A stretch of 64,000 nt of DNA from Jatrophihabitantaceae bacterium (lineage in GTDB: Bacteria; Actinomycetota; Actinomycetes; Mycobacteriales; Jatrophihabitantaceae): NCBI GenBank assembly GCA_036502575.1, contig DASXYL010000040.1, forward strand, positions 47,283-111,282, in the 5' to 3' direction. Positions 9,374 through 10,537 of this stretch are shown piece by piece. The position numbers and the translations under genes were made by a program. How positions within the stretch are numbered: position 1 is the stretch's first letter; every line of letters starts with the position of its first letter. A model generated the notes under the pieces. That model was not told the DNA's origin. It ran no database searches and was given only the letters and a program-made list of their open reading frames with translations.

Positions 9374-10415
9374 GGACACGATCAGCGCCATCAGCCCGCT
9401 CGACGCCGCCGCGGTCGCGGCGGCCCGCGCCCGGCAGGACAGCCTGACCAAGCCCCGCGGTGCGCTCGGTGCGTTGGAGGACGTCTCGGTGCAGCTGGCC
9501 GGGCTGGCCGGGGTTTGCCCGCCGCCGCTGCCGACGCCGGCGGCGGTTGTGGTGTTCGCCGGCGACCACGGGGTGCACGCGCAGGGCGTGACACCGTGGC
9601 CGCAGGAGGTCACCGCGCAGATGGTCGCGAACTTCCTCGCCGGCGGCGCGGTGATCAACGCGCTGGCCGCGCAGTCCGACGCCGAGGTCCTCGTCGTGGA
9701 CGTCGGGGTCGCGGCGGACCTGGACGCCGTTCCGGGCCTGCTGGTCCGCAAGGTGGCGCCCGGCACGCGGGACATGACCGGCGAGCCGGCGATGAGCCGG
9801 GCCGAGGCCCAGGCCGCGATCGAGGTCGGCATCGTGATCGCCCGCGATCTGGTGGCCGCCGGCACGCGGTGCCTGCTCACCGGCGACATGGGTATCGCCA
9901 ACACCACCCCGGCGGCCGCGCTGATCGCCGCGTTCACCGGTGCGGCTCCGGCTGAGGTGACCGGGCGCGGCACCGGCGTCGACGACGCGACGCTCGCCCA
10001 CAAGATCGAGGTCGTGACGCAGGCGCTTGCCCTACACCGGCCCGAGCCCGGCGATCCTCTCGGCGCGCTTGCCGCCGTAGGTGGCTTCGAGCACGCGGCG
10101 CTCACCGGCTACCTCCTCGGCGCGGCCGCGGCCCGGGTTCCGGTCGTGCTGGACGGAGTGATCGCCGACGCCGCGGCCCTCGTCGCGCGGACGCTCGCGC
10201 CGGACAGCACGGCGGCGATGATCGCCGGACATCGCTCGGCCGAGCCCGGCGCGTCCGTGGCTCTGGCGGCGCTCGGGCTCGCGCCGCTGGTCGATCTCGA
10301 CCTGCGCCTGGGCGAGGGGTCCGGGGCGGTCCTCGCGCTGCCGATCGTGCAGGGCGCCGTCCGGGTGCTGCGCGACGTCGCGACCTTCGACTCGGCCGGC
10401 GTCACGGAAAAGTGA
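9360..10415 (+). CDS. cobT: Nicotinate-nucleotide--dimethylbenzimidazole phosphoribosyltransferase CobT
   Basis: 351 aa from the internal ATG. Motifs DSLTKPRGALGALE, VVVFAGDHGV, GDMGIANTT and LRLGEGSGAVLALPIV (catalytic Glu motif). Confidence 0.9.
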   Translation: MTLLEDTISAISPLDAAAVAAARARQDSLTKPRGALGALEDVSVQLAGLAGVCPPPLPTPAAVVVFAGDHGVHAQGVTPWPQEVTAQMVANFLAGGAVINALAAQSDAEVLVVDVGVAADLDAVPGLLVRKVAPGTRDMTGEPAMSRAEAQAAIEVGIVIARDLVAAGTRCLLTGDMGIANTTPAAALIAAFTGAAPAEVTGRGTGVDDATLAHKIEVVTQALALHRPEPGDPLGALAAVGGFEHAALTGYLLGAAAARVPVVLDGVIADAAALVARTLAPDSTAAMIAGHRSAEPGASVALAALGLAPLVDLDLRLGEGSGAVLALPIVQGAVRVLRDVATFDSAGVTEK

Positions 10416-10537
10416 GCCGCGCCCTGGTGCTGGGCGGTCGCCGCGCTGACGCGCTGGGCCTGCTCAACCAACGGCTCGCGGCCACTGCGGACTACGTGCA
10501 TCTGGTCGTGGCCGGGCTGCCGTTGCGGCTGACATGA
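10412..10537 (+). pseudogene. CobU/CobP (adenosylcobinamide kinase/guanylyltransferase) remnant, 41 codons
   Basis: Read directly from the sequence: [41 protein letters not shown]-stop. ALVLGG is the start of the P-loop strand. LG..NQRLA...D.V.LVVAG is the family C-terminus. Bracketed by GTGA (cobT stop) and ATGA (cobS start). It is too short for the ORF track. Confidence 0.65.

Follow-up and report, generated by a model that had tools for sequence, protein, structure and literature searches.

Background

In the assembly of the nucleotide loop of cobamides, the enzymes CbiZ, CbiB, CobC and CobU turn cobinamide or cobyric acid into adenosylcobinamide-GDP. CobU, an adenosylcobinamide kinase/guanylyltransferase, belongs to the CobU/CobP family, which is represented by the profiles PF02283 and NF004469 and by the solved structures 1CBU and 1C9K of the Salmonella enzyme, and in which a P-loop (GxxxxGK[ST]) is accompanied by a guanylylated histidine, His46 in Salmonella CobU. 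The loss of cobalamin genes is a natural occurrence amongst the Actinobacteria, as in the deletion of cobF in Mycobacterium tuberculosis, and pseudogene remnants are found in decaying genomes.

Where neighbouring cistrons overlap in an ATGA or GTGA, translation of the downstream gene can be coupled to that of the upstream gene by termination and reinitiation; studies in E. coli and Haloferax have shown that this mode of coupling works only where genes overlap or lie very close together and that it is nearly lost at around 20 nt (Huber et al. 2023, PMC10666635).

We report here the analysis of a cobamide gene cluster in a 64,000-nt stretch of actinobacterial DNA, the whole of which is referred to as the window, where a 41-codon open reading frame, named cobU', joins cobT to cobS. 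This ORF is very probably the leftover of a recent in-frame deletion of 123 codons in one soil strain. The deletion may have left the coupling of cobT to cobS in place and, together with deletions in cbiB, cbiZ and cobC, would have left its host to scavenge cobamides.

Results

Organisation of the gene cluster

The cluster reads cbiB', riboswitch candidate, btuF, btuC, btuD, cbiZ', cobC', cobT, cobU', cobS and cobT2 (Table 1), and from btuF through to cobS every gene overlaps the next by 1-14 nt. Neither indels nor frameshifts are found in cobT, cobS, cobT2 or btuFCD. A scan for CobT, taking one genome per species, identified two uncultured Actinomycetota MAGs as the nearest relatives, L001 and L002, whose CobT proteins are 83% and 85% identical to that of the window, respectively. 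The window's cobT has its true start at 9360 (ATG), preceded by a GGAGG Shine-Dalgarno sequence, and the resulting protein has 351 amino acids, as does that of L002, with no indel between them; the second paralogue, cobT2, is also present in L001. In L002 the frame of cobS (7544-8301) is broken by two single-base insertions that neither the window nor L001 has. These insertions are probably sequencing errors of the MAG, though they could also mark a pseudogene.

The riboswitch candidate shares 8 nt with the end of cbiB' and is 80 nt upstream of btuF. It is likely to be the 5' control element of an operon running from btuF to cobT2. A scan of the plus strand of the cluster for promoters and terminators found nothing, such a scan being weak in a high-GC actinobacterium.

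Table 1. Features of the cobamide gene cluster, in window coordinates
Feature	Position	Strand	Nature	State and evidence
cbiB'	5088..5789	+	233-codon adenosylcobinamide-phosphate synthase remnant	-73 codons, retained 36+197; Pfam CobD_Cbib 113-281/282 only
Candidate cobalamin riboswitch	5782..5926	+	RF00174	30.7 bits vs gathering score 31.5, E 6.9e-5
btuF, btuC, btuD	6012..8859	+	btuF-, btuC- and btuD-like corrinoid ABC importer	Intact; Peripla_BP_2, FecCD, ABC_tran; 1-7 nt overlaps, including cbiZ'
cbiZ'	8853..9194	+	113-codon adenosylcobinamide amidohydrolase remnant	-89 codons, retained 101+12; Pfam CbiZ 1-94/191 only
cobC'	9191..9373	+	60-codon remnant of Rv2231c-family CobC (threonine-phosphate decarboxylase-type aminotransferase)	-272 codons, retained 34+26; NCBIfam matches at both ends
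cobT	9360..10415	+	Nicotinate-nucleotide:DMB phosphoribosyltransferase	Intact; DBI_PRT 1-329/329, E 1e-129; TIGR03160 equivalog
cobU'	10412..10537	+	41-codon adenosylcobinamide kinase/guanylyltransferase remnant, GTG start	ORF, profile and colinearity evidence
cobU deletion junction	10444..10448	+	3 nt (GCT) vs 372 nt in relatives	Net -369 nt = -123 codons
cobS	10534..11289	+	Adenosylcobinamide-GDP ribazoletransferase	Intact, 251 aa; Pfam CobS 1-206/207, E 7e-43; TIGR00317
cobT2	11310..12317	+	Second DBI_PRT (CobT-like) paralogue	Intact, 335 aa, 20 nt after cobS; last cluster gene

Downstream of the cluster, between 12547 and 54784, the window carries gcvT, pepA (M17), lpd, sucB (E2), lipB, lipA, glnA, glnE, glnA2, NAD synthase and panB. 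This order resembles that of the region from Rv2207 (cobT) to Rv2225 (panB) in Mycobacterium tuberculosis, a resemblance which would place the cluster in a conserved core neighbourhood of the actinobacteria. Other features of the window include two tandem regulators of ~1030 aa each (19906-22998 and 23088-26171, plus strand), with the Trans_reg_C, BTAD, NB-ARC/AAA and TPR domains of a SARP/AfsR-like architecture, and a class A bacterial RNase P RNA (57851-58259, minus strand; full-length match, 280.6 bits). A LysR-type regulator (29019-29930, minus strand), divergent from lipB, appears to be frameshifted, with the HTH in one frame and the substrate-binding domain in another; the substrate-binding part is a 189-aa ORF matching the profile at 25-206 of 209, and the gene is either a pseudogene or carries an assembly indel.

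Position and identity of cobU'

The preliminary description of this DNA placed an ORF precisely between the stop of cobT and the start of cobS, and it is correct to the base. The GTG of cobU' shares its TG with the TGA stop of cobT (10413-10415, giving GTGA at 10412-10415), the TG of its own TGA belongs also to the ATG of cobS (ATGA at 10534-10537), and it thereby has with both neighbours a 4-nt stop/start overlap of the kind seen in translationally coupled cistrons. Codons 1-11 are the native N-terminus of CobU as far as the first two residues of the P-loop, codon 12 (GCT, 10445-10447) is filler at the junction and codons 13-41 are the native C-terminus, whose 29 residues are ~80% identical to those of orthologues.

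Residues 8-40 of cobU' match positions 136-168 of the 168 in PF02283 (E 4.5e-6) with 26.8 bits, 0.2 bit below the gathering score of 27, and residues 10-40 match positions 139-169 of the 173 in NF004469 with 25.8 bits against a cut-off of 161; the curated cut-offs of both models, which are set for whole proteins, are not reached, the matches covering only the last 31-33 profile positions. Alignment to the CobU profile, a check put forward for the ORF, thus recovers its C-terminal end; the N-terminal LVLGG is too short for profile scoring and was for that reason tested by nucleotide colinearity with relatives (see below).

A P-loop, which in the relatives lies within LVLGG(S/R)RSGKS, was sought in cobU' and is absent, and the codons for the SGKS of the relatives begin exactly at the deletion junction. 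In the alignment with cobU', nothing corresponds to residues 13-135 of L002 CobU, a stretch that contains IAAHRARRP and SDEVGSGVVP, in agreement with the original observation that neither the P-loop nor the guanylyl-histidine region is left. Since the P-loop, the region of the guanylylated histidine and the SDEVGSG motif, together with ~75% of the enzyme, are all gone, the 41-aa product cannot act as a kinase or a guanylyltransferase. Judged by its sequence, cobU' is a remnant of cobU by descent and stands outside the functional CobU family.

It had been expected that gene callers would miss an ORF of this size; in fact the JGI annotation of the source contig did call it, with a weak precomputed match to PF02283, and the protein collection contains the product itself (P0001). 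A search of the 5.8 billion proteins of that collection with the 41-aa query returned this protein and two C-terminal fragments of full-length CobU; a search of this sensitivity thus revealed no mini-CobU family. The suggested tblastn search with a full-length actinobacterial CobU, for which we used that of L002, found the remnant as its sole match in the 64-kb window, and no second cobU.

Full-length cobU in related genomes

In both L001 and L002 a full-length cobU (~164 aa, with GGSRSGKS) follows cobT and precedes cobS, overlapping the two of them. The gene of L001 reads VSRTLVLGGSRSGKSAFAES..., whilst the 164-aa protein of L002 matches the solved Salmonella CobU structures 1C9K/1CBU from end to end (E 1.5e-28). 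In the global alignment, residues 1-11 of the window's ORF correspond to residues 1-11 of L002 CobU and residues 13-41 to residues 136-164, leaving 123 residues missing. The same arrangement extends to more distant organisms: in a survey of gene order drawn from a metagenome scan for CobT, where the matches listed are at most 77% identical to the window's CobT and do not include the source contig, all 24 of the other cobT...cobU-cobS loci among those matches carry a full-length cobU.

Much closer relatives are found in soil. Contigs ~96-98% identical to the window, from five other soil runs, carry full-length cobU at the position of cobU'. A 768-nt contig from one of these runs (X2; ~96% identical, with ~10 differences in 276 aligned bases) aligns to the window at 10362-10444 and again at 10448-10640, with 372 nt in between. 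Relatives' contigs that align to 10362-10444 run straight on into TCCGGCAAGTCC..., the SGKS of the P-loop; in runs X3, X5 and X7, the contigs matching up to 10444 go on with TCCGGCAAGTCCGCCTTCGCCGAG (SGKSAFAE, P-loop) and those matching from 10448 are preceded by ...GGACGGCGCTTCCGC (GRRFR). The ORF is thus colinear, at the nucleotide level, with full-length cobU in L001, L002 and the X2 contig. Profiles, the alignment to L001 and L002 and the ~96% identical contig with its 372 nt combine to uphold the initial identification of a cobU relic built of the first beta-strand and the conserved C-terminal segment, and of these lines of evidence the contig is the strongest. The combination by which a pseudogene is known, an intact orthologue in near relatives and the loss of the catalytic parts, is what is found for cobU'.

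The deletion extends from the third residue of the P-loop (GGRR/SGKS, where '/' is the junction) to just before the conserved DALGxLNQ segment. No clear microhomology was found on searching the junction. A simple microhomology deletion was considered and discarded, as the GCT at 10445-10447 fits neither flank of the intact gene, where the left flank continues with TCC and the right flank ends in CGC. This suggests that the filler is a small insertion made during end-joining or a later substitution.

Deletions in cbiB, cbiZ and cobC

Comparison of the window with L002 by blastn reveals four gaps, each within a B12 gene. Protein alignments show that the deletions in cbiB, cbiZ, cobC and cobU are all internal and in frame and that all keep the native starts and stops, 11+29 codons being retained in the case of cobU; the four fall within 5.4 kb. 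The junction of cbiB' lies near 5194 and has 6 nt of microhomology (GCGGCC), and it is after 5194 that the X2 sequence diverges from the window. In cbiZ' the junction (9151-9159) has a microhomology of up to 9 nt (GGCTGGCCC) and in cobC' (near 9292-9295) one of 4 nt (CGAC). In runs X2-X5 the close relatives are undeleted at the junctions of cbiZ and cobC, with loose ends at 9151/9159/9166 and 9292/9295, respectively. The start of cobC' overlaps the stop of cbiZ' in an ATGA and its end overlaps the start of cobT by 14 nt. Microhomologies of 0-9 nt at the junctions would point to slippage or end-joining as the mechanism of deletion. No similar truncations occur elsewhere in the window, where ~40 other genes have full coverage of their Pfam profiles.

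Occurrence of the deletion allele

Soil run X1, the source run of the window (JGI 3300036773), contains the locus almost wholly (0.99 of sampled words) and many other soil runs contain it in part. X1 is the only indexed run with the words that span the cobU junction, and all of the sampled 31-mers over the cbiB and cobU junctions are contained in it. The independent Logan assembly of X1 has zero differences from the window over 10376-10867 (depth 41) and 8647-9581 (depth 33). A minor strain, ~91% identical and with an intact P-loop, is also present in this run. One strain in one run accounts for all occurrences of the deletion allele.

Signals for translation

The energies calculated for the duplex with the anti-Shine-Dalgarno sequence are -14.9 kcal/mol for cbiZ, -9.3 for cobT, -4.6 for cobU' and -3.6 for cobS, and cobS has no recognisable Shine-Dalgarno sequence. 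Folding of the RNA around the cobS start gave no special structure (z = -0.52) and so no structural signal of coupling, and a search for RNA-seq runs containing the locus found none. As the length lost is divisible by three and the native start and stop are untouched, cobU' still begins on the stop of cobT and ends on the start of cobS. An out-of-frame deletion in cobU would be expected to end translation well upstream of the cobS ATG, whereas the in-frame deletion would keep the chain from cobT through cobU' to cobS. Since cobS has no Shine-Dalgarno sequence that can be recognised, preservation of the frame probably allows ribosomes to continue from cobT to cobS, and the 4-nt overlaps, taken with the weak ribosome-binding signal of cobS, make a role for cobU' in cobS translation plausible.

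Discussion

In the account that we favour, a single strain of an uncultured soil actinobacterium lost 369 bp from the middle of cobU, and ribosomes loaded at the GGAGG of cobT would terminate and reinitiate twice and so reach cobS. The same type of event, an internal in-frame deletion in which the native ends are kept, also struck cbiB, cbiZ and cobC. Taken together, the four deletions are predicted to abolish all steps from cobinamide or cobyric acid to adenosylcobinamide-GDP. The importer, cobT and cobS are intact. With CbiZ, CbiB, CobC and CobU gone, CobS would have no substrate and the strain probably scavenges complete cobamides through its intact importer, on which it would, most likely, now depend. 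The cobT and cobS genes may still be useful in some way or may simply not yet have been inactivated.

Three other origins for such an ORF can be weighed against this account. The source is a metagenome contig and run X1 also contains minor related strains whose P-loop is intact, such that an assembler might have jumped a repeat or built a chimaera from a genome with a full-length cobU. We consider this very unlikely: the Logan assembly of X1 gives the same junctions without a single difference at a depth of 33-41, X1 has all of the sampled 31-mers over the cbiB and cobU junctions, microhomologies of 0-9 nt are far below the k-mer sizes of assemblers, and four in-frame artefacts in one pathway are implausible. 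Still harder to credit is a functional small protein derived from CobU, for instance a partner of CobS or CobT or a regulator. The ORF is translatable, it lies between two pathway genes and its C-terminal 29 residues remain ~80% identical to those of orthologues, and yet the allele occurs in one run, where recent origin explains the conservation, no homologous mini-protein besides the window's own was found among 5.8 billion proteins, and of the Rossmann-like fold only an edge strand and the C-terminal segment are kept. We give next to no credence to the notion that a laboratory strain carrying engineered markerless deletions contaminated the sample. Geneticists do build internal in-frame deletions that keep a few terminal codons, as a guard against polar effects; the retained lengths here, however, are irregular (36+197, 101+12, 34+26 and 11+29 codons), the junctions lie at natural microhomologies and have neither scars nor restriction sites, the source is a soil metagenome, and the nearest relatives are uncultured MAGs.

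A closer question is whether the in-frame state of the remnants owes anything to selection. Gene death may have been shaped by coupling, such that, within an overlapping chain, deletions survive only when both frame and overlaps are kept, with the dead cobU', cobC' and cbiZ' serving as relay cistrons to the distal cobT, cobS and cobT2, which are still needed; we regard this as a tentative proposal, possible but distinctly short of even odds. The rival view, which we place somewhat below an even chance, is that the remnants are purely neutral, in frame by chance and phase bias, and that the nucleotide-loop pathway, cobS included, is already useless. A uniform null, in which four deletions are all in frame with a probability of (1/3)^4 = 1/81 = 0.012, was dropped since microhomology pairs are biased in phase: in these genes, which have a GC3 of ~0.9, 44-58% of the 3-6-nt pairs are in phase, and the neutral probability of four out of four rises to ~0.04-0.11. 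The in-frame state is thus weaker evidence of selection than first appears, and not strong. The neutral view also gains from cbiB', whose position, upstream of the riboswitch candidate and apart from the overlapping chain, means that coupling cannot account for its being in frame, and from the presence of the allele in a single run, with ~96-98% identical relatives intact, which leaves little time for selection to act; were the pathway dead, cobS itself might be dispensable and there would be nothing to relay. In their similarity to L001 and L002 the remnants match the intact genes, in keeping with a recent event. Relative to close strains, cbiZ', cobC' and cobU' together have 6 third-position and 4 other differences and cobT has 15 and 4, these being few sites, and the only change in the remnants that is unique to the deletion lineage, D28Y (10493), is radical and compatible with relaxed constraint. 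Against neutrality stand the freedom of cobT, cobS, cobT2 and btuFCD from indels and frameshifts, the native stop/start overlaps kept by all three of the deletions within the chain, and a cobS with no Shine-Dalgarno sequence of its own.

On its own, cobU' changes nothing in the biology of CobU, and the part worth following is the fourfold in-frame pattern within one sub-pathway. The locus is a clean natural case in which four enzymes of a sub-pathway have been knocked out separately, with the importer and the two final assembly genes left intact, and the intact conspecific strains in other soils turn it into a dated record of how a producer or remodeler of cobamides becomes a pure scavenger. 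It also offers a testable case for the question of whether translational coupling shapes the decay of genes inside operons. For annotation it carries a warning, as the weak domain matches would wrongly score cobU, cbiZ and cbiB as present here.

Comparison with known systems

By descent, and by its orthologous position between cobT and cobS, cobU' is homologous to the CobU/CobP enzymes (PF02283, NF004469; 1CBU, 1C9K), whose first 11 codons (beta-strand 1, LVLGG) and last 29 codons (DALGxLNQRLA...) survive in it; unlike them it has no P-loop, no guanylyl-histidine region (IAAHRARRP in L002) and no SDEVGSG, and cannot be an active member of the family. With the coupled ATGA/GTGA cistrons (PMC10666635) it shares an overlap of 4 nt with both neighbours, as has the full-length gene in relatives, and a downstream gene, cobS, that is without an evident Shine-Dalgarno sequence. 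It differs from them in that the middle cistron has ceased to encode a functional protein, its only conceivable role being that of a relay.

The anatomy of the four remnants, with native start and stop, few terminal codons and a preserved frame, is that of engineered markerless deletions, from which they are set apart by a natural origin in a soil metagenome, by irregular retained lengths and by microhomology at the junctions. A further parallel is the natural loss of B12 genes, such as that of cobF in M. tuberculosis, where, as here, a deletion specific to a strain or lineage inactivates part of the pathway and uptake is kept; in contrast to one large deletion or scattered frameshifts, four separate internal deletions have here left small in-frame ORFs. 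Deletion alleles specific to a strain, or pseudogene remnants, are well known, and the present finding is mostly one of ordinary gene decay, if an unusually tidy example of it.
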